64,000 bases of DNA from Bispira polyomma. Lineage: Eukaryota. The translations under genes and the position numbers were made by a program. The notes beneath the pieces were generated by a model that did no database searches, was not told where the DNA came from, and saw nothing but the letters and a program-made list of their open reading frames with translations. Each line of letters opens with the position of its first letter. The stretch's first letter is position 1. Positions 3,106 to 49,688 of the stretch are shown piece by piece. The DNA is taken from the NCBI GenBank assembly GCA_965649765.1, contig OZ287750.1, forward strand, positions 101,060,001-101,124,000, in the 5' to 3' direction.

Positions 3106-3111
3106 TTGCAG

Positions 3112-4158
3112 GTCTTTCTCTTTAGCTTACACAATTGGCACCAATGGCTGTCTCCAGGGCTCACCAAGCTTTCAGATCATCCACTCAAAAAGCATACACA
3201 TACATGTTTTTTCTTGCTTTCACCTGCTTTACAAAGGTTACAATACAAAATAATACTCCCTTAGTCATACACTCTTTTCTGGAACTTTTAGTCACAAGTA
3301 ATGTATCAAATTCCTCTCTTGTTACCTGTCAGTAAAAAGGTCAAAATGGTATTGTATGGCCTAGATGCATCCTGCTTTGCGGATCAGCACATTAAATATT
3401 ACCAAAAAGCAATAGTGCTAAACAAACCATTTAGAGCAAAACTTAAAAGTGTAATTGACATAACATTTCTCGCTCAAAAAAAAAAACACCGGTGATTCCA
3501 TCTATATGGGCCAGGTATTCAAGGCAGTATACCTGGTGTCATTTTATTCCTTCCTCAGAATATCTAACCTTCTCCCATATAGTGTAGCCTTGTACTCTCC
3601 CCTCCAACAACTAGCCAGGGGTGACATCTTGTTTGCATCTCCTGGCACCCACATTATTGTAAACTAGTCTCAGACCCTTCACTTAAGAGACACCATAAGA
3701 ATCATTAAGCTACCCCACCTGTGTGACCCTTTCCTCTGCCCTGTCAGGGCCATTAAAAATTTGTTGGTCATCACACCTAGTGCAAACAATTCTACTCTGT
3801 TCTAATTTAAGTGCAGTGCCAAATGGATGCCATTGATGGATACCAGAATTCCTAGGGGCCGTTGTAATGGTGAGGTGTACAAAAAAAATGGATGCCATTG
3901 ATGGATTTTAAGGTGAGAAGAAACCTTCAAGACATACTGTCCCATATACATTGCCAAAGTACCAACATAACCTTCCACACCTTCCAACGTTCGGATGCAA
4001 CCTATGCATTCAATCAAAACATCTCCATTCTGGATATACAAGCTCATGGCATCTGGACATATGACTATGTGTGGAGGTATATCAACCAAGATCACAATAG
4101 TTCCCACCAGGTGGCTCTGGACTTTAAATCGTCCCTCACCACAACTACTACTCACTAG
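3112..4158 (+). pseudogene. tyrosine recombinase of element A
   Basis: ORF fragments 3135..3335, 3301..3495 and 3892..4158 carry YR catalytic-region motifs. Confidence 0.9.
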
Positions 4159-5099
4159 TTAGTGTTTGGGGTAACCTTTCTCTTACTCATACAAACATAA
4201 TATATCATGTATTTTATACTAAAGTTTTACATGTATACATTTAGGGCCACCTTACATTTATATAACATTTTTTATATTATTTTACCGAAATATTGTACAC
4301 TTAAATATACATTTTACATCTACTTTAAGTAAACTTAACAATATTTTATGAAAGTTCACTTCAGAATCAATTTATCAACCGAAAAGTCCAAACAACATAG
4401 CAAGGTCATGGGAATTTAGGGGAAAATCCTGCTGGCAAACCAACCACAATGCTAGATTACTAGTCAACTGCCACAAATGTAAAAACATCACCTCCTTGGT
4501 AAAGGTTATAGAAGGTTGTTAACTTACCATATATGCCGCAGAACCTCGCCAATATGAACACAACAACGAGTCCTCTCATCCTCACAGATATTCTAGGAGT
4601 TACTTCTCTCAGCTTATCTTTGTCTGTCTCTGTTCACATGTGTAAAGGGCGTTTTATAGATCTATGGACAATATGTGGTGGGCGTTATTGTGGGAATAGT
4701 CAATTAAAACAGATAATTCATTTTAAAACACAGGTGTGCATCTCTTGTTATTTTCAACAACAAAAAACCTCATAGTAAATGGACAGCATTAAAATAACTT
4801 TAAAAGCATTTAATTAAATCTTACAATAAGCCAATATATTTCAAAAACCCACACATACGTAATACAACTGCAATCAGATATGAACTGTCTCTTGTCTAAA
4901 AGCTGCTGTATGGACATGTAATCAAAGGGAATAACATAACCAATTGTTGCATTTACACTTAACTCTCTGATCCTATGAGGTAAAAAGTTACTGCACAATG
5001 TATGTATCATGTGTAATGTTATTTTAAAAATATTATATACAAAATAATTTTCACATTTTCTAATTAAGCAAAGGTTCTCTATGTTATACAAACTTGATA

Positions 5100-5560
5100 T
5101 CTAGGACTAGTAATGAATTTTGGGTATATGTTCTTGATGCTTGGACAGAAGTTGTAGAAAATGTTAAACCTAAAACAACTGAAATGGTTTCAGTATAAAA
5201 ATAATTCATAGGATCCTTGGAACTACAAAATTAAGATTAAGAATGCAATTAGAGTATGGTGATAAATCGAGATTGTGCTATATTTTTTAGGAATATCTTG
5301 TGCATCTGTTCTATAACTGTGAAGTTATCCAGTCCTTCTTAAAAACAGTTACTGGTTGGGTTTAATGTAAAATAAATTTCACATTGTCAAAAGATCCATT
5401 AGGATATCAAAATAATGATCAAAACTTTATTCCTATCAATGTGATCCTCATTCTGACAAAACAGTATCTATTTTAATGTGCTTAGCCAAAATGTCTTCCT
5501 AGTGTAACAGATTTTAATTTACGCTAACACAAACAACTTTTATGTCATATTTATTCAAAA
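5100..5560 (+). mobile_element. Degenerate L1/Tx1-like LINE ORF2 C-terminal fragment
   Basis: Manual translation gives NEFWVYVLDAW...HLFYNCEVIQ...DQNFIPINVILILTKQYLF, similar to the LINE at 20447-21779. Confidence 0.6.
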
Positions 5561-7604
5561 TAAACTGAGAATAGTCATGTTTTTGTGTAGTCATTTGTAT
5601 TTTAAGTTATAATAGAATTTGGACAACTTTAGGTACCGATTAATCGCTCGATTACAATCCACCCATAATTGATTATCATGTTATTAACTGACTCCCAGCT
5701 CTAATATTTATAATATATATATCGGTTATACGGTACCACAAAATTCACTGTTCTGTATTTTTTCATTGCTTCTATGTACCACCATCTGAGTGTTGTAAAT
5801 AGGACAACCGTTACCACTAGGGGTTAATTATAGGACAACTGTTACCACTAGGGGTTAATTACAATATTGAATTCATTCAGTTTTCTTCCTAATGCAGTTC
5901 ACAATTTTTATTGAGGGTTGTGTCCTTGTTTTTGCACTATTCAATAATGTAAAGGCTTATGTTCTTGTTTTATACAGCACAACACAATGGTTGGTGCCTA
6001 CCACCAACAGATTTACACCCCTAGAGGACAATGGTTCCTATAATGGCAGCTTGGCCAGCGACATTATTGATACCAATACCTATAGTACTGACACAAACCC
6101 AGTAAAGCAGGGTATAGAACATCAATCTAGTATCTCTAGTACTTACAGTGGTCACAAACAGGCAAATGCGGATAAATATGATCTAGAATTGCAAGTAAAA
6201 CCTAAGACTAGGGATCTTATTAAGCAGGCACAGGATGTACCTCAATTCCAGCAGTGGGACGCCCAAAGCACGGATAAGTATGGTTTTATTCCTTTAGGTG
6301 AACTCCAGCTTCCCAAAACAGACAAACAAAATTAAGTTGGATGCTACATTGTTGAAATTACATAGCGTCATTAAAGATCAAAACTGCCCTAATTTTATGG
6401 GCCCTCAAATACAAATTGACTCGGAAATAAAACCAGACATTTGGCAAAAATATCTGACTGATTACTGAGTTAAACAATTACCCCTGGTAGTACGTTATGG
6501 ATTTCCGCTTGATTTTCAACAAAATAGTAAACTTTACCGTGAGGAACAAAACCACAAATCTGCGACTGATTATCCAGATGACGTTAAAGCTAAGTTAATT
6601 GAGGAAATGAATTCGGGGCTATGTTAGGTCCCTTTGAGGATATTCCAATTAAAAATTTGCATATCTCCCCCTTTATGACCAGGGAAAAACCTGGGGGGGC
6701 ACACAGAAGAGTTATTATTGGCAAATCTGTCAACTCAGCTGTGGCTAAGGATAAATCTTTCGATACCTTGTTTGTCCTCACTCTTCGAACTATTGATACT
6801 ATTTCCAGTAAAATTTCCAGTGACATGTCTTGGTGTATTAGTCAATACTGAAGATTTAACAGTCTCTCTGCTAGATGATAAACTAACAGACATTACAGCC
6901 CTTGTTCGGGACTGGCAAAACAAAAACACTTGCACCAAACGAGAACTTCAATCCCTCTTGGGCAAGTTGTTATATATTTCAAAATGTGTACGGGTTTTAA
7001 ATTGCATGCTCGATGTTCTTAGGTCTGTAGGTGTAAGTCAAAAGGTTCACCTGACCCATGAGTTTTACCAGGATGTAAACTGGTTTAAAAAGTTTTTACC
7101 AAAATTTAATGAAAAGACCTTTTTTAAGCATGACCCAACCACTGATTGCATACAACTAGACGCCTGCCTCAAAGGGATGGGGGGCGATGTAACAATGAAG
7201 TATATGAATATCCGATTCCCCTGGGCTACCTTGATCTTACCATAGTCCATCTCGAAATGCTGAATATCCTCGTGGCTATTAGGTTATGGAAGTCAACCTG
7301 GGCAGGAAAACGGTTAATACTCCAATGTGACAACACTGCTGTGGTCACAATTCTCAATTCTGGTAAAACCAAAGATTTAACTCTGGCAACAATTACCCGG
7401 AACATTTTTATGGAGGTGGCCTCTGTTGATATCAGTCTTAAAACCATCCATTTATTAGGGAGACTTAAGACAGTGGCCGACTTGCTTTCCAGGTGGCATC
7501 TCACCACAGATAATGACAAAAAGTTATTAGAATTAGTAAATAATCCCAGGTGGGCTAAAGTCAAGGCCACTATGTTAGACATAGACTGGTCTATCAAATT
7601 ACAG

Positions 7605-8586
7605 ATATACCCTCCCAGTTAAGAATGATTACTACACAGGCCTCATACAGAACTCACCAAGCTTTCAGACCAGCCACCGAGAGGGCATATACAAATATGT
7701 TTGGGCTCTTCTTGGCCTTTTGCAGTTTTGCTCAAGTCAGACCACAGCATATTACACCCTTAATCATTTTGGCATTCTTCTAGTAGTAAACCACGTGTCC
7801 TCTCCTTCAATAGCTAATTACCTTTCTGCAATTAAAGCCAAAATGGCCCTGTATGGCCTTGATGTCACTGCCTTTGCAAACCCCCGTATTAAATATTACC
7901 AAAAAGCTCTAGTACTTAACAGCCCTTTCAGGGCTAAGATTAAGGCAATACTAGATATACCCCTTCTTCAACAAATAACTCAGGTTTGTGACAGTATGTA
8001 TATGGGCCTGGTGATTAAAGCAGTGTATCTCATAGCTTTTTTCTCCTTCTAAGAATATCAAATTGGGTCCCTCATGCTGTTGCTCAGTTCTCTTCTTTAG
8101 TCCACTTGGCCAGGGGGGACGTGCTCTTTGCCCCCCCTCCCCCCCCCCCCTGGTCTGCACATCATTATCAAATGGTCCAAAACCCTTCAGTCTAAAAAAA
8201 TAGTTAAGGTTCTAAAGACTCCAACCCTGAGTGGTTCCCCTTTGTGTCCAGTGGCAGCCACTAGGGTCTTATTACCAATCACCCCGGGACACAAAAACTC
8301 TCCTTTGTTTCAATATAAAAAAGATCAAAAATGATATCCCATGATAGATACTCAAGTTAGAAAGAACCTCACCTTAATACTTACCCGACTGGGTATTCAG
8401 TAATCTTCAATTTCCTTCCACACCTTCCGTCGTTTGGGTGCCACATTGGCCTTAAACAACAATGTGCCAATTCAAGACATCCAAAGTCATGGTACCTGGA
8501 CGTCGGATTGTGTGTGACAGTATATAGTGCAGGACCACAATGCTTCTGAATGTAGCCCTTACCTTTACATACTTTTACACTATTAA
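7605..8586 (+). pseudogene. tyrosine recombinase of element B
   Basis: HQAFRPATERAY start, FFSFLRISN, KWSKT, LCPV, HTFRR, HGTWTSDCV. Confidence 0.9.
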
Positions 8587-8617
8587 TATATACTTAAATG
8601 TTAAAGATAAATATTTT

Positions 8618-8928
8618 GGGCCACCTTACCACCTTATTTCATGTTAATCATTTATATATACATTTAATAAATCTCCTTTGGCAACCTTAAATCAAACCTA
8701 AGGTTACCTTATAATTCCAAATTTCAACTTATCTTTCCTAACCCTAACTTCTAAGTTAGGGCTCCCCTTAATCTCATATTCTAAAACTCAAGCTTAGGTA
8801 ACCCTAACTTCAGGTTAGGGCTACCTTAAACTCAAATATCTCCTCACCTTAACCTGAAAATTCTCAGGCTAAGGTCACCTTAACTTTCTTGAACTTAAAC
8901 TCCTGGTTTAAGTTTAAGGTGGCCCTAA
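8618..8928 (+). repeat. 3' array of about 10 TWAG-N5-CYTA palindromic motifs/hairpins, closed by an 11-bp inverted repeat
   Basis: GGGCCACCTTA (8618-8628) is the exact reverse complement of TAAGGTGGCCC (8915-8925); internal TAAGGTTACCTTA, TTAGGTAACCCTAA, TAAGGTCACCTTAA, CCCTAACTT-CT-AAGTTAGGG. Confidence 0.8.
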
Positions 8929-9768
8929 TCTCAGTATGTAAATAACTATTAGATATAACATAGATAACTATATGTGTATGTACATGGACCACAGATATAT
9001 TTACACTTGCAGATGGGTGGAGAGCCTAACTCCCAGTCATAGTAATCTTGTGTTATTCTATATGTACAAACATGTCATAGTAGAAAGTCCAATCAGGTAG
9101 AATTTTTAAAGTCTACCTGTAGAAACTCCAATTGAACTTTCTACCAGTAGAAAGTGCAATTCTGTTTGTTATAAGAAAAAAAATCGAATTGTATTTTACA
9201 TTACTGGCTCAATACTCTTTTTGATGATAATAATATAATAATATAACTTTGTCAAAGTGTCTTATATGTTACTGACAAATATGTCAGTAATCATAATAAA
9301 AATACTGGGAAACTGAAGCCAAAGAAGAATATATTTTGACTTTAAGCCTAAGCTCGAGACTGACTATACATCTGACCGTGTATGTACCAAGTATATTCTG
9401 ATTTCCTCTACCAGTTAACAACCCATCACCAAACTGCACAAGACTTGTTGAAAGTGTTTTAAACCAAAACTAAACTCAACCAACCATTGTATTTACACAT
9501 TACAGAAATGGATGGCCAGAGCAACTAACTTGCCCTCCTACCGTGCTGTGGCGAGTTTTAGCCATCTTGGGACGCCCTGTCATCATATATCCACTTTATT
9601 AATCACTGGTGATACAGGCCAGGGAATGGCTTGACTGGGCTATACAAATTTTGTAGTCATTGCTCGCAAAGCATGGCTAGTCAGTCGTGAAGTTGTAATA
9701 CCTTACGGTATTATATACTGTTTACCCAGATACACCAATCCTAGACCAGAACCTCTTTTACTTCACTA

Positions 9769-9895
9769 CCAATCAAATCCCTTAGCTTTAAGTCAATTTC
9801 CCGCCTTTTCTCACATTTGGTCATTATTAAGTTGCAAGTTAATGTAGCAACACCTTGAAATTACATTGGAATCGGCAAATAGAGCCGCCATATTG
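9769..9895 (+). promoter_or_regulatory. Candidate internal Pol II promoter of element C (CCAAT, E2F-like TTTCCCGCC, YY1-like GCCGCCAT)
   Basis: Motifs at 9769, 9797 and 9884; the same order recurs upstream of element E gag (18937, 18979, 19034). Confidence 0.4.
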
Positions 9896-10031
9896 GAAAT
9901 AACTGTTTGCGTGAAGGGAAACAAGCTTCTTTTATATTTATTAAACATTATTTTACCTTTTCGTTTAGTGATTTTAGTGAGTTTTAACTTTTCTCATCTT
10001 ATAGTGTGCCTTTTGTGTTGGATATCTTATT

Positions 10032-11491
10032 ATGGGCCGGGCGAAGAAGAAGACTGTGGCTTTGTGTTCACGCTGTAATTTTTCACATTCTCGACCAGTG
10101 GGTACTAGGTGTCGGCTGGCCATTCAAGACGCCACGTCGGACGCAGAAGCCAGCAGAGTTTTTTCTACTGAAGTCCATGGTGCAGACGTTGAAACCAGCA
10201 CGCTCAACTCCGTTGCTGACTCGAGTCACATTTCTGAAGATCACGTGAGTTTTGGTCAGTTCTACAAAGACGTTTTCACAGAGCAGCAGTCTATGATGAA
10301 AACACTAGTGTCCACGGTAGCTAAGTTACAGGAAGACGTATCCGACTTAAAGACGTCTCGTTCATCTTCCCCCCAGGTCTCGTCAACACCTCAGACGATT
10401 AGGCCTCAGAGGGCAGCTCCACCTAAGCTTCCAGCACCTTTTACACAAAACATGGCCTCTTCTTTACCATTTACTCAGAGCTTCCCTCAGCTTCAGAACC
10501 CGCCAGTGAACTACACAGGAGTCAACGATCTTCGTTCTCACGTTTCTCATGACACTTACCTGACACGTCACAACACTCAGTTCCCAGACACACGACCAGT
10601 TCATTTGCCACCTCAACGGGAGGGCTACACACAGGACCACGCTCAGAGGTCCCTACAGGATGCAATTCTGCCTACTCCAGATGTATTAAAGCAGTCCGCT
10701 ATGATACAGAACGAGGTTTCACAACGATTAGCCCGTTACGAGGCGTGGGCCACTGACAAATCGCTTCAAGGTAAGCTCAGTACTAAACGCAAATCTGGTC
10801 GCTACAATGTATCTGAAGTGTGTGTCACCGACCCAATGAAACGTTGGCCTAATGAAGCATGTTTTTCTGTGTGAGTAAGAAACGAGTTTCTTATGATGAG
10901 CTTACTGTGTCACAATTTGCTGCAGGTCAGTTGCAGAACAGCTTAGAAGTGAGAAGCCCTACTATTTCTTGCGCCATGTTAATCCAGTTAGCAGATACTT
11001 TAAAAGATGCTTCTAATATCTCCTGGCAGATAGCCAGAGGTTCGTATGCATGTAACATGCACGATGTGGAAGAGGGGCGCCTCAGCTGGGTAGACGAAAC
11101 TAGGTGGACAATGAACCGACTGTCCTATTCCCAGGCCTTAATTTCGAACGGCGCATCTTCAAATTCAACTTCCTCGAATTCCTCCTCGGCCACCGGAAAG
11201 CATGAGATGCCATGCAGGCACTACCAGAAGAATACGTGTCAGCATCAGAAAGACCATGAGGGCAACAACGCCATTTTTAAACACATCTGTGTCAATTGCT
11301 TTCGTTTGCATAAGAAGCACAATGCACATCCAGAATCCAAGTGTTTTAAACTTCACCGACCCCCCCCCCAGTGCCCGCAAATGTACCCCAATAGGGGTGC
11401 GGACTGTCGACAGTCACCACAGCCATTTGTTATGTACAGTATGTTAAACCGGATGTCGAGACTGCAGAGCAGGAGCATTCTGAGAGCATGA
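10032..11491 (+). pseudogene. gag of element C (frameshift near 10870)
   Basis: N-terminal CSRCNFSHSRPVGTRC, a coiled-coil-like segment, WP..C motif, and C-terminal CRHYQKNTC..H..HICVNC..H....C zinc-finger cluster. Confidence 0.88.
10768..10776 (+). other. Predicted splice donor in gag (AAG|GTAAGC, phase 1)
   Basis: Exon ends at 10770, the first nt of gag codon 247; equivalent sites at 286/287, 40709/40710, 44147/44148 and 60363/60364. Confidence 0.7.
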
Positions 11492-13929
11492 ACTTAAGAC
11501 ATGAGTATAATAAGCAAAATTTTGAGTTAGTTAATCAAAGGAACATTTTTATGTACAGTATGAGCTTTAGGGATGGACAGTTCTTAAATGATTGTTCTTG
11601 TGATGTATTCACGACAGATGGACAAAATAACGTCTCGTGTAGTAGCAACTCCGCCTTATGTTCTGTTGGTCACAAGTTATGTCCACCAAAAGTTCATGGC
11701 AGTAGTAATTTTATTGCAACCTCGTTTCTGGTTGATTTGTATAGTACTCACAGTTATGATGTCCTTAAAGGCCCAGTGTATTATATTGTTTGTAATGCTG
11801 ACTCCAGTGTGTCAGGTGCATACACTTGGGTTTTCTTTCAAGGTCAATGGTCTCTTCAGAGACATGACCTCTCTTTACAAGAAATGTGGCCCATCAGTTT
11901 GGTTTGCACAGGTTCTGTACCTGTTTTACTTAGAAACATTGCTTCATATACCAAGGTTCGACCTTTACCAAAACATAAGAAGGTCACCCATACCCGTACA
12001 AACATCAGTTCTTCTGATTATTATATTGCCATCATTGACAACATTTGTAGTCAAACCACTCAAACAACATACGACAAGCATATAAACGCACGTGTGGATG
12101 ACAAGTTCCTTTCGCGGAACCATACAATAACTGAGGACACACATATAGTAACCAACATTCCACAGGACGTTGTATTACAGAACAGTGACATACAGCACTC
12201 CCCCATAATGGAAGAAATTGTGAATGAGGACATTTTACTTACTGACCAAAGAACTTATGGCTTCATCCCTCACGGGAGAAACCATTTTAACTTCATAGGA
12301 CCAGACAGACAACAGGTAGACTTGACTTCTTATGATAAGTTAATTGAAGTAGCTGATATCATAAAGACCACTAAGGTATCAAACTACAGACAAGCGCGTT
12401 TTCCCATCAAAAGTGATCTCAATGTTCTCAATTGGAAGAAATACCTACTCGATTATCCGGATCAAATCGTTCTACAGTATGTAGAATTCGGGTTTCCTAT
12501 ATCTCTGTATGAGAGGGACAGATTGAAGGTCATAAATGTCAAAAACCATTTTTCCGCTATGGCATTTCCACAAGCCATTGACAAGTATTTCCTTACAGAA
12601 GTAGCTAAGGGCACCATAGTCGGTCCTATTTCAGGAAAACTTCACCCGGATATACATTGCTCACCTTTATTAACGGTACCTAAAGATATTGATCAGCGTC
12701 GTTTAGTTCTAAACCTTTCTCACCCCCTTGGACAATCTGTAAATGATTGTACAATTAAAAATAAATATGATAACGTCGCTTTTAACTTAAGGTTACCTAC
12801 CATTGATCAAATCACTACCCGTATTATTGAGTTAGGAACTAAGGCCACCTTAGCAAAAGTGGACATCGCTCACGCGTTTAGAAATTTAAGAATTGATCCT
12901 TTGGATTGTTTAAAGTTAGGTTACCTTTGGAAAAATAATTACTTCATTGATCTCAGTCTAACTTTTGGACTCACTCATGGCACGGCGGCCTTTATGATTA
13001 TTTCTGATTGTATTACTTACAGTATGAGACAGAAAGGATATATAGTCTACAACTATATCGACGATTTTATACTCATTGAGACTGAAGATAAGGCTGCCTT
13101 AGCTTACACTACTTTGCAACAAATCCTAGCAGACCTAAGTCTCCCTATTAACACCAAGAAATTAGTTCCCCCCAGTAAGCGTGTAACCTTCATGGGCATC
13201 ACTATTGACATAGACCTCCAAACACTCAGTATTGAACAAACTAAATTAAACTCTATATTTGACACATGTTTGGAATTTAAATACTTGCATAAAGTACGTA
13301 AACAGAAGTACCAGTCACTACTGGGAAAGTTGTTGTACATACAGCGTTGTGTGAAGAATTCTCGGATATTCATGAACAGAATGTTAACGTTATTACGGCA
13401 GTCTACTAGTAGTAAAACAGTATTTTTGACAAGTGACTTTCATAAGGATTTACAATGGTTTTTAACTTTTCTCAGACAATTCAATGGTACAACTAAGTAC
13501 ACATACCTGGATAGTTCACATGACGTGTCATTACAAGTCGACGCTTGTTTATCCAGAATCGGTGGCATATCTGGTTTAGAAGTGTTCAAAGCTCCTCTAC
13601 CATGCTTCCTTAAACAAACACTTTCCATTGTCCATTTCGAAATGGTCAGTATTCTCATAGCTTTCAAATTATGGGGTCACAAATGGAGTAATAAAAAGAT
13701 CAAGATACAATCAGATAACATGGCTGTGGTGTCTGTCGTACAGTCATCTAGAACCAGGGATCTGTGCCTTAAGGAATATTGACTTGGCAAAGACAATATA
13801 ATAGCAGACGCTCTATCTAGGTGGTTTGAATTAGACCATTTTGACAACATAATAAGACAGGAACTCTTACACAACTTCATCATGCATGACATACCCATTG
13901 AATTTTTTACCTTAGATACTTATGTGTAA
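11488..13929 (+). CDS. pol: N-terminal extension + reverse transcriptase + RNase H (small deletion/frameshift near 13775)
   Basis: KVDIAHAFR, LTFG, YIDD, YQSLLGKL, VDAC, SDNMAVV; C-terminal LGKDNIIADALSR continues in another frame to TAA 13927-13929. Confidence 0.92.
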
Positions 13930-13937
13930 TTTCAGAT
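13927..13937 (+). other. Predicted splice acceptor at the pol/YR junction (TAA TTTCAG|AT, phase 1)
   Basis: AG at 13934-13935; the same stop+TTNYAG layout at 3103-3111 and 47337-47345, and at 7596-7604 where the stop reads AAA. Confidence 0.7.
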
Positions 13938-14916
13938 CCTTCTGACCCAGCCTCCTCACTGATCAAAGGAGCTTTGAGACGGCTGAGACAAAGTCACAGA
14001 CCTAGGACACAAAGACAATATGACAGCCAGTTTAGACTTTTCTTGAGCTTCACAGTTTACTTTGATTTAAAGGAAACCTTCTGCTTTAACAGCGTTATAG
14101 CTTTTTTGGAATTTATGACACAAACAGGTGTCTCGTACAAAGTATTGAGTAATTACTTATCTTCCATTAGGCACAACACAAAAATTCTGAACATTCAGCA
14201 AACTGGTCTTTATGACCCTAGATTGCCATTATATTTGAGTTCATTACAACTCACTTCCAAATACACACCTCGGGTCAAAGGGGTTTTCGATTTGCACCAA
14301 TTACAACAGATTTCACAAGCTTGTAACCAGTTTCAATTTCCTGATTTATTCAGAACAGCTTTTTTGTTTGCTTATTTTGGTTTTTTACGCATTTCTAACC
14401 TGACCACCACATCAGGTCTCTCCTTTGATCCTACCAGACACCTGACAAGGGCTGACGTGTTGTTCGCCCCCCCAGGCATTCACCTCATATTAAAATGGAG
14501 TAAGACTAACCAAACCAGGAAAAACCCAGACATCATCACAATTACCAGAACTTTCAAACCCATGGCTCTGTCCTGTAAAGGCAGCCACTTCACTATTTCA
14601 CAAACACCCTCTCCCTCCTTCTTATCCATTACTGGCAAACCCACTAAATAAAGACCAGTGCCTCTCAGACTCTAGTTTAAGGCACACTCTTAGCTCTATC
14701 TTAACACAGTTAAAAATCCCAAAAGAGGGGCATTCCTTCCATTGCTTCAGGCACTCAGGTGCCTCCTTGGCATTTAATGCTAATGTTAAACTTCAGCATA
14801 TCCAAAAACACGGATGCTGGAAATCAGATGCTGTTTGGTCTTACCTTCAATCTACCTCTCATGCTTCCACAATTATTCCAACAACGTTCACATCCCTCGT
14901 CTCTTCTACTTTCTAA
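13936..14916 (+). pseudogene. tyrosine recombinase of element C (one frameshift near 14540)
   Basis: GFLRISNL, KWSKT, LCPV, HCFRHSG, HGCWKSDAVWSY; no ATG at the domain start. Confidence 0.92.
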
Positions 14917-17029
14917 TTTGGCTTTGGCATTTTAAAATTATTTCATCAAAAATAATTTTTTGTACAGTTGTATATAGAGACGAGTAGTTAGAACAAAAAT
15001 TATCCCAAACAGCATCTGATTCCTCACTCTCAATAACTATGACCTTTAAAGGTCACACTTACCCCAGGACAACATTAGTTCAATGTCACTCACAACTTAA
15101 ACGACTGATTATACAGGGCTATAAATTATCAAATTGGTCTCTCATTGACTAGTGGTTTGGAGTTTCTCGGTTCGAAGGGGGAGAGGGGAGCAATGCATGT
15201 ATCTGTGTCAGTAGAAAACTACAACAGGTATGATATTTTAAAAATAATTTTCAAATTTTAATAACATTGAATTGAAATTTACAATTACAGTAACATCTGT
15301 TACCTTTCAAGTTCAATGGTAAAAAAAATGCTAAAATTAATTGCCAGAGAAAACCTTCCACTTGATGTAGGCTTGAATGAGTACAATCCCGAATAAACAA
15401 TTCATAGACAGATGGAAGTAAGTGGGTGTTATTCTAGCATTACACACTACAAACGAATTTTTGTTCCAAAAAAGCTAAAAGCTCCCATTATGAAACCATT
15501 GTGTATATATATTATTATTATCAGCAGCAAACTTTTTTGTGCTTATTTTCTATTATTCAGATTCTAAGGCGCTAAGTTAAATGATAATCAAAATTCAAAT
15601 ATCGTAATTGATAAAAGTTATAAATTGATAAAATTATATATGTAAAAATAATACATACATTTAATGTAGTTAATCAATTTAAAACATACTATCTTCAAAC
15701 TAGAAAGCAAAAGAAAACAAACAATAAAACCTTGGGAAAGGAAAAGCCTGATGCTTCAATGTGCATGGTTACACTATATTTCCATGTGACCGTTAAGATT
15801 ATGATGGAGCTTGTGGATGTCTAATCCGTCATCCAAGAAATACAAAATGTGTGTCCACGAATGTGATGTATGTTATTTTTGCAGCTTGTGTAAATTTATC
15901 CAAATTCTGATCAAATTTTGCCATCTCCTAATACAGCCTCAACCAAAAAAAGAACTGTATAGTAAACCATCACTATTGCAGTTAATATATACTATAATGG
16001 TGGCAATCAAGACAAGGAGAAGTGTTCATTATAGAGAGGTGTTCACTCTTCAGAGGTGTTCACAATCAGAGGTTTTAACTAAACTGGAAATACTGATCCA
16101 CGAGTAATGTCTTTAAAAAGGTTTTTGTTGTCAAAATCTCTGCACCAGTGTATTGAGAAAAATGACAAATGTTTGTATAATAATTATTCCTGTTCTTTTT
16201 TTTTTTTTTTTTGTCCCACGGAAGTATAGCCCCAAAATTATTATTACTGAAACATCTATATATATCACCCCACGATTGATCTATCATCCTCTAAGGCACT
16301 CTCTCGCCAGAGTCAGTCCCACAACATAGCATTGGTCATCGTCATGTTCACACCATTCCAAAGGATGTCATATCCCCCAATGAACCTAGCAGCATTGGTA
16401 GAAACCAAAGTGGGGACTGTCCCACTACATATAATCACTAGGTTGCAGAAGATCAGAACGTTTTCGGTCAAAGCCACCTGATCGGTTTTCTCTAACACAT
16501 GCTTTCTCTTTTCTCTTCTATGAGGCATTAGTCAAGTCGCCTGATTGGTTCTCCTCTAAAACATGTTTTCTTTTTTTCTTTTCTTTCCTCTCAGCCATTA
16601 TTCATGTAGGTACTGGACAGGCAACACAGTAAAATCACTCTCCCTGTGCCCCTGTGGTAAACATATTAAACAATTAACACAATACTACAATATTGGCCAC
16701 TGCCACTATAATTGTGTAACACCACCATTGTGCTGTCATATCAGTTAGTGTCAACTTTTTTAGGTTTGAACAATGTTATGCCATTATGTTACACAATGCT
16801 ATCATATCTGATCTGATATTGTTATGCTTTTATACTAGTTTTACCTTTAAAACGCTTTTTTGTCACAGTCGCTTAGAAGTTAAGGTTATGTGTAGGTCAA
16901 AGCCAGGGACCAAAGATAGTAAAACATATTATGAGTATTTTATTACATGGTCGTTTATATATACATCTGTACATAAATATTAAAATATATATATTTTGTA
17001 TTACTGCCAAAAAAAAGTGAAACTAAAAG

Positions 17030-20446: not shown

Positions 20447-21779
20447 TTTTTTATTTATACTATTTTACACTGTCATTTACAAAATATTGGATACCCCCGA
20501 CAGTAGAGATATCCATGACAATTGTACATTTCACAAAAACTTCTTTAATGACAGATTTTTCAAATTATATATACATATGTACATTTACACAAACAAAAAT
20601 AGTAACATTGCAATACCAAACTGTGGTGGTTCAATTTGACTATATATGATACCTAGATATATTTTAATCTTAAGTATACAAAATAGCTTTAACAACCTAA
20701 AAAAAGGCCTACAAATAGGATGAACACAGAGCATACATCAGTATTTAGGTTAAGATTTTTATAGGTTCGGGAATAGGTTATTCCATCTCTCCCATACCTT
20801 TGTGAAGTCATCATAATTGAATTTGTTTTAGCCAAGTATTCTTGGTCCAAATATTTATTTTTTATTACTTCTTCAAGACAGTAAGGGACCTTCTTGTGTG
20901 CACACCAGAAGATACATTTTTTTGTTAAAACTAGTATAAAATTTAATGGCTTATAATTTTGGTCTTGTATAACATATCCAAAGATTTTAGTTGTATCACA
21001 AATGTGTAATTTAAATTTGATTTTGTTTTTATCCAAATTTTAACATTATTCCATAGCTCTTGTGTCAGCTTACACTCAGAGAAAAGATGTTTAGCAGTTT
21101 CTACATGTTCACCACAGAGACGACAGTTATTGGTGTCTTCAATCTTAATTTTAAAAAGGTTATCACGTGTTTCAAGTATATTATACAAAATTTTGTACTG
21201 GAACCATATGACAGAATTATCTCGAATTGTTTTAAAACAAATTTTATAAATTAAATGCCACATTTCGTCATTTATTACAGAGCTAATTTTCCTTTCCCAT
21301 TTTAATTCGCACTTTGTAGGCGCTTTCCTTTCAACTTGAATCATACAGTTATAATATATCTTACTGCCTCTTTTCTTGTTAAAGAGGGGTTGCACATGGA
21401 ATGGTCGATTTGGTCTGTGTAGTACAAAATGATTTCCTTTCGAATGTTCTGAAGTAAATCTTTTTAGTACAGACCTTATTCTAAAATATTCAGATCCACA
21501 TCGTAGGTGTGAGATATTTCCTCCGTACTAAGCAAATGTCCTTCTGAGCACACAATGTCTCCCATTATGTGTATCCCATGTTTGGCCCATTTTGGAAAAA
21601 ACATGATTTCTTTTGAAATACGATCATTTAACCAGATGCTAGAACGAAGTATATCAGTATTCAATTTTATTTGCTGATGTTTACAAAATTCTATCCAAAT
21701 TTCAAAAACATTTTTCCAATAGGGGTTCATTTTTAGGAGGGTTTTGCACGAGGTAAATCCTATCATAAATAACCTGTCT
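20447..21779 (-). mobile_element. 5'-truncated L1/Tx1-like LINE inserted in element E
   Basis: NPYWKNVF..W, WFQYKILYNIL, CRLCGEHVETAKHLFSEC zinc knuckle; poly(A) end at ~20447; apparent TSD AAAGCATT at 20439-20446 and 21780-21787. Confidence 0.88.
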
Positions 21780-24440
21780 AAAGCATTACAGGCCTGTACA
21801 TATACAACACTGTGATCAATATTATGGCAGTCATTCTGTATATAATGCTAATGTCAAAAATAAGTGTAGCGACAACTGGAGGGCCGACTGGGCTAGGTTT
21901 AGTAACAAAACATATGCCCAAGTTTTGACACACAACTTGAATCAGAATAAAAGGCAAAGTTCTACAAAGGAAAAAAATAGTGGCCAAAGTCCCTCTCTGA
22001 TTGTCGTCCATGTATAATAAGTCAAACGTTTGTAAATACAAATGCTATTGATGTAAACAGTTTCAGGAAATTGAATCAACATGTCAATAAAGCTGGCAGT
22101 TTCACCCCAACAATTGAAACGCCCATGCCAGACCAACAATGCCTAAACCCCAGAGCCAATTTAGAGAACAATGGAAAAAGTCGCACCTCTGTTAGAAACA
22201 AAAGCGATGTGGGCAGCTTAAGCTCTATAAAAACACAAGGGTTTCCAAGAAACATTACAATCATTTGTCAGAATAGGTTTACTCCCTTGGCATTACTCAA
22301 TGAAAGTGACATGGCTGTCAACTTAGACTGTGACTTAGGCGCTATGCATATCGCCCCAAACAATCAAATTAGCAAGTATGAATTGCAATTGCAAGTGAAA
22401 TGCAAACACAGAGAGGTTTTAGCAAAAGCAGAGAATTATTCCCTATTTAAACAATGGAATAGGCAAAACAAAGAAAAATTTGGAATTATTACCTTGGGAG
22501 AACAAAAATTACAACAAGTGGTTAACCGCTCGGCACATATAGTTGATTCAATTAAATTACACGAGTTAATAAAACAAGACAGTGCTACAAACTTCCTAGG
22601 GGCCCAAATACCAGTCCAGTCACAACTACACCTTGAAGAATGGGAAAAATTATTAGATACATATTGGGATTGCCAATTACTACACCTAATCAGATTCGGT
22701 TTACCTCTTAACTTTGGGGTTTTAGCAAAGGCAGAGAATAATCCCCTATTTAAACAATGGAATAGGCGAAACAAAGAAAAATTTACATTTATTCCCTTGG
22801 GAGAACAAAAATTGCCACAGGTGGTTAAGCCCTCGGCACATGTAGTTGATTCAATAAAATTACACGAGTTGGTAAAACAAGACAGTGCTCCAAACTTCCT
22901 AGGGGCCCAAATACCAATCCAATCACAACTACATGTCGAAGAATGGGAAAAATGATTAAATACATATTTACTACGCCAATTACTACACCTAATCAAATTC
23001 GGTTTACCTCTTGACTTCGATAGAACATGTCCTTTACAAAATAAAGGAAAAATCCCAGTTCAGCTAAATTATTTAAATTTCCCTTTATTTTATAAAGATG
23101 ATATCAAAGTGTACCTTGAGGAAGAAAAAGAGTTTGGCACAATCATATGTCCATTTAAGGAACCCCCATTATCCAACTTACATATTTCGCCTTTTATGAC
23201 CCATCCTAATCCGGAAGCTAAGCACAGAAGGGTAATAATAGACCTCAGTTGCCCACAAGGGCAAGCAGTAAACTCTGCTATAGATAGAGACCAGTACCTA
23301 GGAACTTCATTTTTGCTTACTCTTCCCACTGTGGATGACATAACCGGAAATGTAGTTAAGTGTAGAAAAGGCGCATTACTCTATAAACTATACATCAGTT
23401 GTGCCTTTAGGCACTTGAAAATTTATCCCGCAGACTACAGTTTACTAGGGCTCCAGCTTGACAATTATTATATTGACATGTGTCTGCCATTTGGCTGTCG
23501 CCATGGCAGCGCGATATTTCAAAGACTCAACAATGCCTTTCATTTTATCATGATGTCACAAGGTCATGACTTCATCAACTACATCGATGACGTCATTGGA
23601 TACAGCATGTCCTCCCCATCTTTGGACTCTTTCAACAAACTAAAAGAAATATTTGAAAAGTTAGGTTTTGCTCTTAGTCTGAAGAAAATAGTCCCTCCAA
23701 GTACTAAGGTCATTTGCCTCGGAGTTTTGATTGATACTGAAGATTTCACAATTTTAATTCCAAGTAATAAGCTTGAAAAAAATAAGATGCACATGTCAAA
23801 GTTGGGAAATTAAAAATGCTGCGTCAAAAGACAGCTCCAATCCCTATTGGGCTCATTATTGTATATTTCAAAGTGTGTCAAAACCTCACGCGCATTTCTC
23901 AATAGAATGCTACATACCCTGAGAGGTTCACAAGGCGTGCAAGAAATAAAACTGGACATGGCCTTTCACCAGGATCTAAACTGGTTTAATACGTTTGTGT
24001 CAGACTTTAATGGTATGGCCTTTTTTGACTGAAAACAAGGGACACATCAGGTACATCTGGATGCGTGGTTACAGAGTCTATACTAAAGACATTCCCCTGG
24101 GGTACAAAGACTATACCATTATTCATCTTGAGATGATAAATATCCTTGTCGCAATAAGATTATGGAAAAATCAATGGTCGAGTCAAAAATTACTTGTACA
24201 TTGTGATAACCAGGCGGTTGTTTCAATTCTTAATTCGGGAAAAACATATGATCTTACGTTGACTGCAATGGCCAGAAATATATTCATGGAGGCAGCAAAG
24301 GTTGACATAAAATTAAGAACAGTTCATATTCTGGGTAAACAAAATAAAATATAGCTAACCTGCTGTCCAGATGAACCATTACACCCAATAATGACACTAA
24401 ACTAAAAGAGTTAGTAAACAACCCCACTTCGCTTAAAGTC
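21780..24440 (+). pseudogene. pol of element E with an internal 303-bp duplication
   Basis: ORFs 22071..22955, 23109..23813, 23847..24032 and 23995..24354. Confidence 0.9.
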
Positions 24441-26469
24441 AAAGTTAAGGTTATCTCAAATTTGTTTAAACTTTAAGTCAAACTTAAACTTAAATCTAAC
24501 TAAATTTAAGTCGACGTAAAGTCACACGTAATGTGAACTTAGACTTAAACTCTTTTCTCACTAAGGTGGCTTCATTTATGTTAAAGATAAATTTTAACCA
24601 GTTACATATATGTGTAGTAATAGAAAAATATATCCCAACTGCTCGTTTGACCTTATTCCAAGGTCAAACATCTATCCCAAGGTCAGGGCACTGCACATGT
24701 TAAAAATTAACAAGAAACAACCTTTACGAGGCTGCCTACAGAAAACATCAGTAAACTGAAAATGCCTTGTTACATAAGGTTCTCAAAAAAAAATCAGACT
24801 TTGACTGTGTACAAAAGTATTTTTTACAATAGAATATGCACTGTTGAGCAGACAGAATTGAGTAATTATCCAATTAATTACTGCCAGCTATGAGGTGTAC
24901 TTAAGCATTATGCAAGGAAGTCTTTAACTTGTGAGGGCCTTATTGGGGAGCTCACGCAGCAGGAAGGGAAAGATTTTCCTTTGTGTCATTAAATTTATAG
25001 AACCCATGGCCTCTAGCCCATGATTTGTCTTCTTTTGACCCAAATTTGAATTTAACTATGGTCTGAATTCGTACTGGTTTGTATGAAAAAAGATTATACT
25101 GATATTGCATATCCATAGAAACAAAACACATGTCTAAAGGTGATTGGACCAAGCTTCCTTTTCCCTGGTTGCGCTATATCTATGCATATTTAAGATCAAA
25201 CTTCTAACTATGCGGCTTTGTTTTTCAGTGTAAGTGCTGAGGGTTTAATTAACACCACCTTTCTTATCAAATTCAGGATTCATGTAATTATTGAAATCCC
25301 TTCCTATAATGATTTTCTTGCCTATAAATTTTACAATTTTCGATTTAAGAATGCAAAAAATTGTATTTGTTCTTGTGGGTAACATTTTGTAGATTTATAT
25401 ATTTAATAAGATATATTCATGGTCGTTTTATAAAAAAATATGAAGTTACAAAAATCTGCCAGACTTATTGATTAGCTTATCAATAATATTGTGCTGGTAA
25501 GTATTGGGATTAAAGTACAAACATCCCTAGCATTACTGGCCCCATGATGGCCAACATATTCGAAAACCTTGCCGAAGTACCTTGATAGTGCGAAGTAGCA
25601 AAGATAAGTTGAACGACCTCCACAACCTTCACGATTATGTCTGATTATTTAATCAGCATAGTGGAAAAGGTGTAAAATAGTTCAAGAGCAATACAAGTAT
25701 ACCTGTGTTGATCAGGATAGTTTATTGCTTTTGAACTACACTACGCTTTCATTGAGATCTAGAAAGAATGCATTGCAAACATTTACCAGAGTGCTTGAGT
25801 CAAAACAAATTATCTATGATGCATGGGCTAATAAAAGGCGACAAATGAAGACTATAACGTCAAATACCTGACAAGGATGGTCGTCTTACTACCTCCACTA
25901 CAAGGCTACTGAGAAATTCCAACGAGGATGATGCAGACGAATATTGGTGATGGAGGGGTATAGATCTGATTTGGATCGCCTTTGAGCTTCCTCACTATAT
26001 ATACAAGCTGTTTTTTTTTTATTAAATTAGGATATTTAGGAGTCAACATCATATACATCAGAAAGGGCAGTAGAGTGTCAGAGGTGAAGAGGTTAAGAAC
26101 TAGGAATTCATACATCAAACTTCTATTACAGAAGTTTGATGTATGCATTCAGGGTTGCCCACAACACCATAACATGAATTGTTAGATATTGCTGTAATGC
26201 CACATACATAGTTAATGGTTAAGGATCAATACAAGTCTACCTGCATTGATCAGGATCAATGTGAGGCCAATGGTCTGATACATTCTTGTTTACATAGTAA
26301 TTTGTAAGTTATTGTCACATTTCAGAGTATTATTGTGATTAATAATCTCTAAGTAACAATCACTTGCTAACAGCTATGTACATATTGCAGATCTCATAAC
26401 AATGAGCACACTCTCTCCCATTAATTGATTCACAAGGAAACCTGCTAACAAAATAACACTCGTCTTCTC

Positions 26470-34882: not shown

Positions 34883-36569
34883 GAAGAACACTATCGTAAT
34901 TATAATGACATAATACTATTTTTTAACCTACTCTCCCCCTCTCTCTCCCTTATATGTAAAAAACATTTAGTCAGAGTTTCAAAAAATAGCTCCACTTCAG
35001 CATTTTTTTTTTTTGAAGTTTCAGTTCTTTTATTGTGACGAAATCCAGAAATTATGAGAAGGGTGGACTATTGTCCATTTTTACAACTTCAGGGATCGAA
35101 AATAAACAGAACACTTGACAAATTTATGCGACACTAATGTGACCATTTCAGCCACAGGGTACATTTCCTCCAAGTTATTATATGTGGTACTTTGTGATAC
35201 CTGAGGGTTATAATTCACCTTGACCATGGTAAACATACGAGTGCCATCTGCACTAAATTGATTTATTATACTGTCAAATCTACTTGTATTTAGTAGTGTT
35301 GATCTGAAGGTTCCATGGTTTTAGGTCAATCTGCGAAGAATCATATAAGATAGATATATCTAGTTTTTCTAACCCTTATTCCTGAAGATGTCTATATGGT
35401 TGACTGTCAAATCTCCCTATATGTTAACTTTACCACGTGGTGGTCATGGTCCCATTTAAATGAACAAGATCTTACCTGATAGTATTCCTATAGATTAGTA
35501 TTACTTTTTTGCATGTTGTTAGGATTGGCAGATATGACGCTTTGCGAATGTTCGTCAAATGAAAACAATCAAATCAGCAACACTCCATCTTAACAGCATC
35601 TCTCCCATCGTACATGTCACAAGCGCATGGGTGCCTTTACCTGATGTCCAACTAAAATCAATTACACCGTGGATCAAATACCTACACAAGAGGTAATACA
35701 TATCATGGTCTTGCTCCAGAAGGATAATATTTATAAATCACAGTAGCCTCTGGCATGAAATATGATTGTCATACTGTACACGACTACAGGTAGTAGATGT
35801 TGTTGTGGCCATTTCACTTTATTTTAACTACAACATTATAATGGCCAGACTTACTTCTCTCTTAGCAATTTTTAGACCTATTTTGGAGTTCTGTAAGCCA
35901 TTTTATAGGCCCCAAAAAATTTTGAATCCTTTTAGGGGCTCTTTCAAAGCGCTTTTGTAGTCCATGTGGAATCTTTGAGCCATTCATGAGCTGCTTGGTG
36001 AGAGACATAACTTTTTAGGTCAATTATTGAACCTGATATGTTTAAAATCCTAACAAAAAATATGAAATACTACATATATTTCCTTATAGAAAGGGAGCAT
36101 ACTGACAATGAATTAACATTAAAGTAAGCGGTTAAAAATCATTCCTACTTTCAAAAAGGCTGACGCATAAATATATAATAGAACTTACCCGTTATAAATT
36201 TGTGTCTTTATAAATTTATATAATTATATACATAGCAAACTACATGCCAAAAATTAAACTGTAACAATTGTTATAAATAAAATAATTAGATCACATTGAA
36301 GTACACAAAGATAGGGCACTCAACATTGGATTTACGGAAAGTATCTTTATAGATTGAGCTATTTACTAATTTTTGTGAGAAATAGGTTTCAATATACACT
36401 TTTACATTAACAAAAATATCATTAAACAGTTGATAAAAAATTACTTGTGAATTACTGAATGTTGCAAACTGTGCAGTGCCTCCTAAACTGTAACCTTGTA
36501 AATTACCTTGCATCAGTGAAACACATAATAAGACATTGAGTTCATTATGTTTTTGTGTAAAATATGTAA

Positions 36570-37085
36570 TTAAAGCACCTTAACTATCCAGGGGGACCTT
36601 AACTTGGTGTAAGATTTTACGGGCTAAACAACCAAGCTTAAGGTTACCGTAAATAGATTACACCTTGAGTTTAAGGTTAACTGACATTAAGATATGGTTG
36701 CCTTAGCAGCCTGAATACAAGGTAACCTTAACATTTTTTAGTTTTTAATTCAAAGATTTTCAGGTTGCCTTTTTAAGGTAACCTTACAATTTGACTATAT
36801 TCCTGCAATACATTATGCCTACTTGATGTTAGGGTGGCCTTAAATGTTAAAATATTGAATTTAAATTGATAGTGGCGTAGTTTGCTATTGAGAAATGTCA
36901 CCAAAGCCGAACTCAGGAGGTAGACAATAAAAGGTTTTGAAAAGCAAGGGCTGCTCGGTTTGAGGCTGTGGGATTTTGTGTGATGTTCCTTCACAGACAG
37001 TCTGTGGTCGACATACCGTGACTCTGAATGCTTTGTAGAGGCATGTGGTTGTTGAATGCCAACGTGATGCCCAAGTAAGGAAGTT
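36570..37085 (-). mobile_element. Element G: 3' end of a YR retrotransposon (YR C-terminus + palindrome array)
   Basis: GITLAFNNHMPLQSIQSHGMSTTDCL matches the YR C-terminus; followed on minus by GTTCGGCTTTGG and repeated AAGGTAACCTTA-type motifs (36570-36845). Confidence 0.8.
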
Positions 37086-42863: not shown

Positions 42864-43813
42864 AATTTTAGCTGAAGGAAAAACTCAATAATTCACAATC
42901 TTTGAGAAGTTCAGGAAAATTAATTTTCATTATTGGTTATTTATGTAGTATCAAAATATCAATACAAGACCTGGGGCCATATTAAGCGGGCTTAAAAGCT
43001 TGTTTTGAGATTATTGTACAAGCTAGCATGCTATAGCTTTTTATTATGATCACGTAATTGCTGTAATTTTCAAATACTGCAGTGTCTCACACACACACAC
43101 ATAGATAAATATAGATCTAACATAGGCAGTATACGTCATTGGGAAAATCCCACACAGACAAATCAATGTTTTGGAGGAAAGTTTACAGGATACTGCAGAA
43201 ATGCCATGAAGGAAGAAAATCGGCAGAAATTCTTTGAACATGAGTCAAATAACCGATTTTTTAAATAAACACAGAGATGCTTCTAACTGCACAAGTGGAG
43301 GAAGATGTTTAGTGATATCCCCCTCCTCCTACACCGCTTATCATTTACCAGTATATTTCAGGACAATGAAGTCAGCCTTTCCGAGTTGCAAAAGTAAATA
43401 ATCTACATTTGGGGGCTGTTACCCAACGGGTCACTGTGCTTCAGTTCCTGGTCCACCCTAACTAAATACTATTTGTTTAAAGTCCTTTCTTGTGACATGC
43501 AAATTACCTCCTGTTTTGGGGATATTGAACCCCTGTTACAACTACTTGCAAGCCATTGGTTCCCCCCTTCTTTCTCTCTTGCTATTACAATTGTGGTAGC
43601 CATTATAAAAAAGTCTTTGACAAGGGCACACACAAAATTGATGCCTAAACAAAATTATTTATTTCTCTCTGTTTAAAAGCTGGATCTAGCCGCTTTTTAT
43701 ATGCTTGTTTACTATTGTAACTGATTTTAGTATTTACAAACTACATTTTAACTGTTTTAGTAAAAAAAACAAGCACGTATACAAGCTGTTAGACCCTTCT
43801 ACAATTGTAAAAA

Positions 43814-44707: not shown

Positions 44708-44715
44708 GGGCATTC

Positions 44716-44748
44716 AAAAAACGAGTAAGGCACTGCTTGGCAGTGCCT
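44716..44748 (+). promoter_or_regulatory. Predicted -1 ribosomal frameshift signal (A_AAA_AAC, 5-nt spacer, 9-bp hairpin)
   Basis: AAAAAAC 44716-44722 is in the gag frame; AGGCACTGC-TTG-GCAGTGCCT 44728-44748; the -1 frame enters ORF 44737..45030; homologous sites at 797-831, 20404-20416 and 41279-41311. Confidence 0.7.
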
Positions 44749-48332: not shown

Positions 48333-48494
48333 TTTGGCTGTTTGGGTGCTGAACTACTTCTCAATTAATTGCATATCTGCAATAACTAAGTAATTAACTC
48401 TTTTCCATAATGTACTCAGGTATCCCATTAGGACCTGAGCACTCATTTCACTAAGTTGCAGTGCAACACTCGAACTTTTAATCAAAAATTTAGT

Positions 48495-48725
48495 TGTCCT
48501 AACCTGGAGTTAAGGCTACCTCTAGAAAAATTTAATTTAAAGTCAATCTTAAATTTAGAATTTATTGTTTTCACTTTAAGTTAAAACTTTAGGTAACCTT
48601 AAATTATTTAAGGTCAGCTAAAACTTAAATTGTGGTTGCCACTTAAGTTTTTTCGTAATGATAAGTCACTTTAGGCAACCTTAAACTGTTTTTCAACTCC
48701 CACCTCAAACTCAGTTGAGGTCATA
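48495..48725 (+). repeat. 3' palindrome/hairpin array of element H
   Basis: TAAGGCTACCT, TTAGGTAACCTTAA, ACCTTAAAT-T-ATTTAAGGT, TTAGGCAACCTTAA. Confidence 0.7.
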
Positions 48726-49688
48726 GTGATGTATAATGCTCATGTAAATGATTATTTTACTATTATAGTAAAACGTTCATACAGTAGTAGTATAATCTGG
48801 ATGTGTATATATTTAATAGTAGTTTTAATCTATGTGTTTTGTAAATAAACACATATTCTGCATATATGTTATTCCCTGCGTCCTATAGGCTTACCTTCTT
48901 TGACCTGGAACTGAGCACTTTAGCCATGTTTAATTTAAAATATAGATGGGCATGTATTATATGAATTTGTCAAGTATACGGTCAGGACCAATAGAAAAAA
49001 TGTTACATTTAAAAAAGAGCCACTTTAATGTTTCTTTAAGGCACACTAATAATCATAAAGTAAAAACTATTTCATTATGGACTGAATGTTTTTGCATAGC
49101 ACAGTTATACCAAACTCAATTTTAACACCTTTCACACAATGATTTTAAAGCTAATTCTTTATGGTGACAAACTTAACTTCTCTGTTAGTTTGCTGTGAAT
49201 TTTCAATATTGTGGGGCTTTTTCAAACTGTTTTGTGTTATATTTTTACCTATAGAAGGATAATAATTGCATTTTAGAATTGAATAATATATCACCATATC
49301 CTTAATATCTTTTTTGGTCATATATTTTTTCCATTTTACACCACTAGGGTAGTTTTACTATTACATATTTGGAACTTTTTAAATTAAGATAGCGTCTCTG
49401 ACAAACTTTTTTATTGTTATTTTTGATATTATATCAAATTTTGAGGTGCTAGGTTAAATGATAATCAGAATCCAAAAATCTCACTTGATGAAACCAAAAA
49501 AAGAGGTCAAGTCAAAGGTAAACTGAGTACCAGGGAAACCGCTATACATCATTAAACGAATATATTATAATCAAACTTTTTGTGCCTCAGTTGAAAAATC
49601 CCCTTCTACAAACACACCAAGAACACAACATAACACAGTCACACAGTCAGACAAATACTTGTTCACATAGGCTGTCTGACAAGCTTGA

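Follow-up and report, generated by a model that had tools for sequence, protein, structure and literature searches.

What kind of sequence is a tandem array of short palindromes that lies behind a tyrosine-recombinase gene, and which molecule would read it? The question is raised by positions 8618 to 8927 (+) of the window, the whole 64-kb stretch of DNA analysed here, where a sequence-only reading had described a 3′ array and had connected it with recombination or binding sites, with a folded substrate resembling integron attC, or with an RNA signal. The cluster is real but not free-standing: it forms the inner part of a terminal repeat, the ~490-bp B repeat found in a retrotransposon of the Ngaro-like tyrosine-recombinase (YR) type. 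The kind of element is known; its cis anatomy, namely the array and a hairpin at the junction of its repeats, is apparently new. Neither is described for YR retrotransposons in the portion of the literature searched, so that a prior mention is possible, and the string "palindrom" had 0 matches in the YR papers searched for that word. Judged from sequence, the array is probably a candidate protein landing pad, and the model put forward below for the junction would be a bold one.

The window comes from a genome of 1.035 Gb in 75 contigs, judged by its repeats to be probably an animal's, and is rich in decayed gag, RT, RNase H and YR elements, with at least ten YR-element remnants in its 64 kb and the plus strand predominating. 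Element B (5974..8559, +) is one of them, having kept internally deleted remnants of pol (RT/RH) and YR and lost gag and its A1 repeat, as seen by tblastn and by blastn against the full copies L031 and L032. It runs into its B1 split direct repeat, of family B (8553..8966, +), which is truncated ~75 bp before the normal end of the full ~490 bp. The array within it carries full 13-bp sites at 8699, 8794, 8816, 8870 and 8915, plus degenerate and half sites, and the 11-bp closing inverted repeat reported earlier is present, with its 5′ arm at 8618..8628 (+) and its 3′ arm at 8915..8925 (+); in most other copies the arms are 16 bp long. Neighbouring motifs do form hairpins, as had been claimed, three of them in element B (8742-8761, 8797-8825 and 8847-8874) and one in element H (48596-48614), and the stretch 8600-8945 folds with z scores of -5.66 (DNA) and -7.31 (RNA), equalled by 0/100 shuffles.

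Element H has a complete B repeat (48344..48913, +), with its array at ~48495-48725 and its end CTG at 48911-48913. Its A1 start (43410..43453, +, with a duplicate at 39972) contains the 3′ half of a junction hairpin, the partner CAG lying at 43442. Element G retains a decayed B repeat with array (36474..36930, -; end CTG at 36474), which points the same way as its minus-strand YR, as had been noted. In element E, the 3′ part of the B repeat (24440..24693, +; end CTG at 24693) is fused by a deletion to the RNase H region, and in element A only the array's opening site is kept (4241..4254, +, the site itself at 4244-4254), the remainder being lost. Element C (9651..15107, +; A1 from 9651, gag, RT/RH, YR and B repeat) belongs to an array-less clade and serves as control; its lack of an array is confirmed, its hairpin partner lies at 9682, and its short B repeat occupies 14925-15107 (+). 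The B|A junction is kept by none of the window's elements, the copy in element B stopping at 8966. The clusters reported for B, E, G and H hold as a group, with 11/20 merged TWAG-N5-CYTA sites of the window falling inside four array regions (951 bp in total), but E contains a single full site, and the exact 11-mer, said to occur often, is found just 3 times in the window. Elsewhere, the window contains a ~3.44 kb tandem duplication, near 100% identical (39426-46300), that spans flank, A1, gag and part of the pol of element H, a Harbinger-like transposon remnant with a MADF-domain ORF and a DDE_Tnp_4 ORF (52980-56115), and a LINE-type zf-RVT fragment (20943-21847).

The identity of the host element emerges from its other copies. 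A genome search with 8560-8990 returned 547 candidates, and the best 40 scored all match the whole ~400 bp, past both arms, at 80-93% identity when the self match is set aside. The claim that the intervening sequence cannot be aligned is thus borne out between families and fails within a family, where hundreds of alignable copies exist. Upstream of 30 family-B loci stand a YR (20), a YR remnant (1), the element's internal spacer (8) or almost nothing (1); element DNA therefore precedes 29/30, which upholds the proposed association with YR elements and is not what a repeat found mostly away from them would give. Self-comparison of 20 longer family-B stretches yields a B1/B2 pair in 10/20 and an A1/A2 pair in 9/20; in other families the figures are 7/20 and 6/20, and in another set both pairs occur in 6/10. 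The resulting layout, A1-gag-RT/RH-YR-B1-A2-spacer-B2 with all ORFs on one strand, recurs in elements H and C. The A repeat, ~210 bp, stands at the 5′ end and straight after the first B copy, the RNase H directly abuts the YR frame, and the A2-B2 spacer is 0.45-0.95 kb long and non-coding (for example L031:7604-8553), the longest ORF in this spacer in 6 elements having 89 codons. A YR search of the genome gave 10713 candidates, the best 150 of which were scored. A2-spacer-B2 units also stand alone (L047, L048), and the remnant at L049 forms a 2.5-kb inverted duplication whose outer ends both carry B repeats.

Ngaro-like elements are characterised, in the portions available of PMC9210276, PMC8547959 and PMC4157794, by the order A1-ORFs-B1-A2-B2, internal repeats behind the YR, gag-RT/RH-YR, the absence of a methyltransferase and solo AB remnants, and available parts of PMC6681497, PMC13465315, PMC3783388 and PMC3266345 give the same layout. 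The elements studied here share the split repeats, the internal repeats behind the YR, the gene order and the lack of a methyltransferase (12 proteins from 3 elements gave no Dam/MT Pfam match at E<=0.5). They differ in their 0.45-0.95 kb A2-B2 spacer, in the palindrome array in B and in the folded junction, none of which is described in those portions of PMC9210276, PMC8547959 and PMC4157794. Self-comparisons yield direct repeats, not the inverted terminal repeats and ICR of DIRS1-like elements, and the methyltransferase domain that marks PAT-like elements is missing. The element is thus Ngaro-like by repeat layout, gene order and absent methyltransferase, an assignment made from layout, not phylogeny; an available passage of PMC4157794 warns that structure by itself is homoplastic as a class marker. 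With DIRS1-like elements it shares a YR and insertion without target duplication, but it lacks their ITR/ICR and MT; single-stranded cDNA intermediates have been shown for DIRS-1 in the consulted part of PMC7192593.

Within B, the array fills the inner 160-330 bp between the YR stop and a poly(A)-like signal and ends 110-180 bp before the element end (~115 bp). It holds 7-20 half or full copies of the palindrome TAAG-N5-CTTA, commonly TAAGGTNACCTTA, and the copies at its two ends are often exact inverted partners of each other. Across 13 families, the tail-to-tail gap is 5 nt in 26 pairs (1.0 in shuffles), with 2 and 1 pairs at the neighbouring gaps; head-to-head gaps, the hairpin-forming ones, are diffuse (3-12 nt). 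Genome-wide there are 7312 perfect 13-mers, 187 versions with one extra central base (its control, 325) and 90 of a reversed control, counts that reflect copy number, not independent events. Motif density in 7 elements is 4.5 per kb in B1, 0.06 in A1 plus ORFs and 0 in A2 plus spacer, and half-sites number 79 against 51, one direction being about twofold commoner. At least one strict TARG-N5-CYTA palindrome is found in 15/17 B repeats on the H/B side (up to 5), far above the 0.01-0.15 of shuffled sequence; H and L177 have looser versions only. On the C side, where B measures 185-214 bp, the strict palindrome occurs in 0/7. A quick YR tree, from which the family-B row was left out as too short, splits 13 array rows from 7 array-less rows with support 98, a clustering that is partly by design since each side was sampled by similarity to a single query.

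Not every copy of the motif sits in B, since among 9 independent motif loci one is a known B, one a new B, one an RT codon stretch, one a satellite (96 bp, L156) and five are unassigned; the motif stands outside recognisable B repeats in L155, L157, L158, L160 and L167. A long run of the 13-mer lies in ~100-bp direct repeats at L160-L162 (G000:C1:2522730-2523430), with no YR nearby. Four metagenome relatives of the YR have no array in the 100-1100 bases present behind it.

For what, then, would an element keep such palindromes? An independent MITE or satellite inserted behind the YR is scarcely credible as an origin, and is refuted for families B and H. The terminal inverted pair and the motif's presence in the 96-bp satellite and in unassigned repeats would suit it, but homology passes both arms to a common element end, the array is duplicated with B1/B2, flanking duplication is absent, and all but one of the family-B loci have element DNA upstream. 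A neutral origin, in which slippage and template switching build up the array in a 3′ UTR that tolerates it, could explain a unit number that differs between near-identical families (L147 against L149-151) and the window copy's private, hairpin-perfecting change near 8900; it is very improbable given that the identical 13-mer and gap are retained across the clade in B repeats that cannot be aligned, and that the invariant columns of the family-B alignment (alignment A1) are the motif columns. A more serious though unlikely proposal is that the element's own YR uses the palindromes, read as TAA-N7-TTA with a 7-bp spacer between the arms, as accessory or decoy sites, which would load the recombinase beside the junction without being cut. 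Their arm-spacer-arm geometry with variable spacer and their position 110-450 bp from the crossover agree with it, and the array follows the YR tree (13/13 rows of one clade, 0/7 of the other), so that an element-encoded binder also fits. Set against this, the array motif is missing from the true crossover arm, where only (A)CTG is conserved, the clade that lacks the array is both young and abundant (597 candidates, the top copies being 94-100% identical), the YR has core-binding and catalytic domains only, and the tree rows were sampled by similarity to one query per clade. The crossover arm without the motif, the motif outside B and a YR model without an extra arm-binding domain argue for a binder other than the YR.

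The array may have an RNA or ssDNA role, and the corresponding reading, a structured single-stranded domain (RNA 3′ end or cDNA) with a long-range closing stem, serving RT recruitment or priming, Gag packaging or dimerisation, is a possible though rather doubtful one. In such a domain, palindromes of equal length would let any two units pair. All 12/12 arrays fold better than full shuffles (z -2.5 to -13), and 7 array-less B repeats do not (-2.3 to +1.9). The complementarity of the closing stems extends past the motif and differs from family to family (13-18 bp in B, L171, L140, L177 and L184); in most of them the mismatches are G-T and not A-C, and B and L179 are distinguished by one swap of C-G for G-C. 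The array is the last domain before AATAAA/ATTAAA, a signal placed 66-135 bp before the B end, in 19/21 B repeats with known end, and the primer of the DIRS-type RT is not known according to the part of PMC7192593 consulted. When sites are kept and only spacers are shuffled, however, the excess becomes weaker than z -2.2 in 8/12 arrays (RNA); 4/12 still fold better (z -3.3 to -4.5), and in 3/12 (L168, L185 and G) there is no excess over the sites. The covariation check suggested at the outset, run on 22 family-B repeats, found a double change at 1/49 stem pairs (2.6 in shuffles) and 89.1% paired stems (88.8 in shuffles), with two pairs mismatched in 19/22, a test weakened by most copies being dead. 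Stem mismatches show no strand bias (G-T 10, A-C 13), whole subfamilies have a broken inner hairpin with the motif kept, H and L168 lack the closing stem, and 4 loci had 0 matches in Rfam. The absent covariation, the fixed 5-nt gap, the B1-limited density, the lack of strand bias in mismatches and the folding excess largely lost once sites are kept all argue for double-stranded protein sites over a fold, whereas closing stems that exceed the motif, the four arrays that fold beyond their sites and the half-site direction bias argue against them. Double-stranded sites for a dimer, of a host protein or, at lower probability, of the YR, accordingly rank above single-strand structure.

Our tentative preference, somewhat short of an even chance, is that the array would be recognised in double-stranded form by a dimeric DNA-binding protein, most likely one supplied by the host, and that B resembles an LTR U3 enhancer. 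Of the functions first proposed, multiple binding sites thus survive as protein-binding sites, the best fit, and not as recombination sites. Each copy would bind one dimer, most likely host-encoded, and the tandem hairpins would be mostly a geometric by-product of stacked palindromes, lengthened by template switching. U3 enhancer arrays of LTRs are clusters of short motifs upstream of promoter and poly(A) signal in a terminal repeat. The B array is likewise a cluster of short motifs in a terminal repeat, but with the split layout B precedes A only inside the element and in the circle; at both places, the B1|A2 junction and the circle, it would act as a U3-like enhancer directly upstream of a promoter-like A. 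We infer the promoter-like character of A from TATA-like words in 3/7 and CCCGC words in 3/7 A repeats. The array motif has no known match among named transcription factors: the likenesses to telomere repeats and to RFX fit some families only, and an NR5A/ERR-type palindrome is not enriched (10 vs 4). If a host factor binds it, the motif, present in 7312 perfect copies across 1 Gb of genome, would count as a major dispersed regulatory motif.

Recombination leads away from the array. Elements end in CTG, without the motif, ~115 bp past it and start with T, and among aligned ends none falls at an array site, which removes the array as crossover or dif/Xer core. At the B|A junction, the last six bases of B find their complement 30-33 nt into A in 17/17 cases (15 perfect, 2 with G-T; for example L034:7341-7412, L168:2152-2223(-) and L188:5991-6062), where the partner is the best match within a 16-base window, and since it is so chosen and families are related, the 17 are not independent events. 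The loop begins and ends with T, giving a T-T mismatch, in 17/17. Stem positions -3 to -1 are invariant and -6 to -4 vary among several pair types, always paired; for the six stem types, full pairing occurs in 1/720 permutations. The crossover sits at the inner edge of this outer stem. The sense strand folds better in 15/17 junctions, by a mean of 2.0 kcal/mol, forming the outer stem in 16/17 and lying >2 SD below shuffles in 13/17. An attC site has an unpaired spacer of 5-6 nt and extrahelical bases on its inner arm; here most folds have a bubble of about 3-7 nt and bulges mostly beyond the outer stem, and family B has an alternative inner hairpin. Two metagenome relatives (YR 44-47% identical) have a sense-favoured hairpin behind the YR, at an inferred junction position (sense against antisense, -19.9 vs -14.5 and -23.0 vs -14.5). 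An attC-like hairpin can thus form at all B|A junctions examined, and its stem covaries from family to family.

Insertions into tandem repeats (L177, L178, L188, L189 and L197) are 5/5 single-point exchanges without duplication, loss or fixed shared word, the five reconstructed targets differing from the junction and from one another. The empty L177 site is seen in contigs of one study, and the joint 1383-8077 has 0 shared letters. An insertion in a dispersed repeat (L045) is 2 bp short relative to the window copies of that repeat. The first base of right flanks (n=81) is A in 43, T in 27, C in 6 and G in 5, and 21/35 left flanks have T at -2. Of the H loci scored, 4/15 are 5′-truncated and have a 12-33 bp target duplication starting at the right junction; among B rows the figure is 0/19. 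The truncated H-family copies L052, L053, L056 and L069 have a precise 3′ end, which suggests one-ended joining finished by repair.

Junctions that fold like attC and five clean, homology-free insertions suggest one-strand integration of folded DNA. We give nearly an even chance to a model in which integration proceeds via the folded sense-strand (or cruciform) B|A junction, the YR cutting one strand, with the array as a clade-specific landing pad upstream. The outer stem would end in CTG/CAG, followed by the obligatory T-T mismatch, a short bubble and the inner stem; the YR would cut one strand at CTG^T of this downstream junction; the cut strand would be joined without homology to almost any A/T-rich target; and replication or repair would complete the joining, as for integron attC. 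In tyrosine recombinases, the phosphotyrosine stays on the arm side and the spacer side is swapped. If the outer stem serves as arm and the bubble as spacer, a cut at CTG^T would fit the folded sense strand only. A duplex circle is disfavoured because without homology two crossover classes 6-8 bp apart would be expected, and one is seen. DIRS-1 cDNA accumulates single-stranded and antisense (PMC7192593, in part), which counts against a sense-strand model or requires a second-strand or cruciform step; alternatively, the hairpin at the junction could direct template switching as an RNA signal. The alignment-based YR model (pLDDT 88.7; a single-sequence fold at pLDDT 33 was set aside) predicts a Cre-like protein with core-binding and catalytic domains and no extra arm-binding domain, closest to Cre (TM 0.70); VchIntIA scores TM 0.54, and 2a3v ranks 47.

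The likeness to integron attC/IntI, and to XerC/D acting on single strands, therefore concerns the B|A junction and not the array, which shows no covariation within family B and gives no support to the attC-like substrate once envisaged for it; in attC the crossover lies inside the folded unit, and here it lies ~115 bp downstream of the array. According to the sections of PMC5027507 consulted, attC sites share with the junction an imperfect hairpin conserved in shape and not in sequence, an invariant triplet at the cut, an inner stem, a single-point crossover and, in most folds of the junction, an unpaired bubble, and their one-strand exchange is completed by replication. The junction differs in its triplet (CTG/CAG, not AAC/GTT), its inferred active strand (sense), its bulges outside the outer stem, the absence of a homology triplet in the target and a recombinase that is Cre-like, not IntI-like. 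Under the DIRS model, circle and target must carry an identical trinucleotide (PMC3266345 and PMC7192593, as far as consulted), whereas 5/5 targets here have no fixed word in common with the junction. The standing model for the order has a double-stranded circle recombining at a common trinucleotide, though DIRS-1 cDNA is single-stranded (PMC7192593, in part). A 45-nt covarying junction hairpin offers a defined oligonucleotide substrate for probing DIRS-order integration, could yield a homology-free, structure-specific recombinase and, if the model is true, would represent a structure-specific single-strand recombination site in a eukaryote.

Several smaller observations accompany these results. 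In a CRESS-like small viral contig with Rep-helicase-like and capsid-like ORFs, the palindrome flanks a nonanucleotide-like stem-loop on both sides (L203:166-210), a single case that may be chance; the palindrome beside a nonanucleotide-like word gave at least 120 matches in each of two scans of viral contigs, mostly in long contigs and without a control. The related elements L177 and L178 occupy separate points of one 189-bp satellite. A CCCGC word, which we take to be E2F-like, recurs ~100-130 bp into A in distant families (L034, L172, L177, L188 and L200). Single CAAGGTCA-type words lie near B ends in both clades, and one or two YCAAGGTCA words, presumably nuclear-receptor monomer-like, stand 14-60 bp before the element end, again in both clades (window 24658-24690; L185, L171, L190 and L193).
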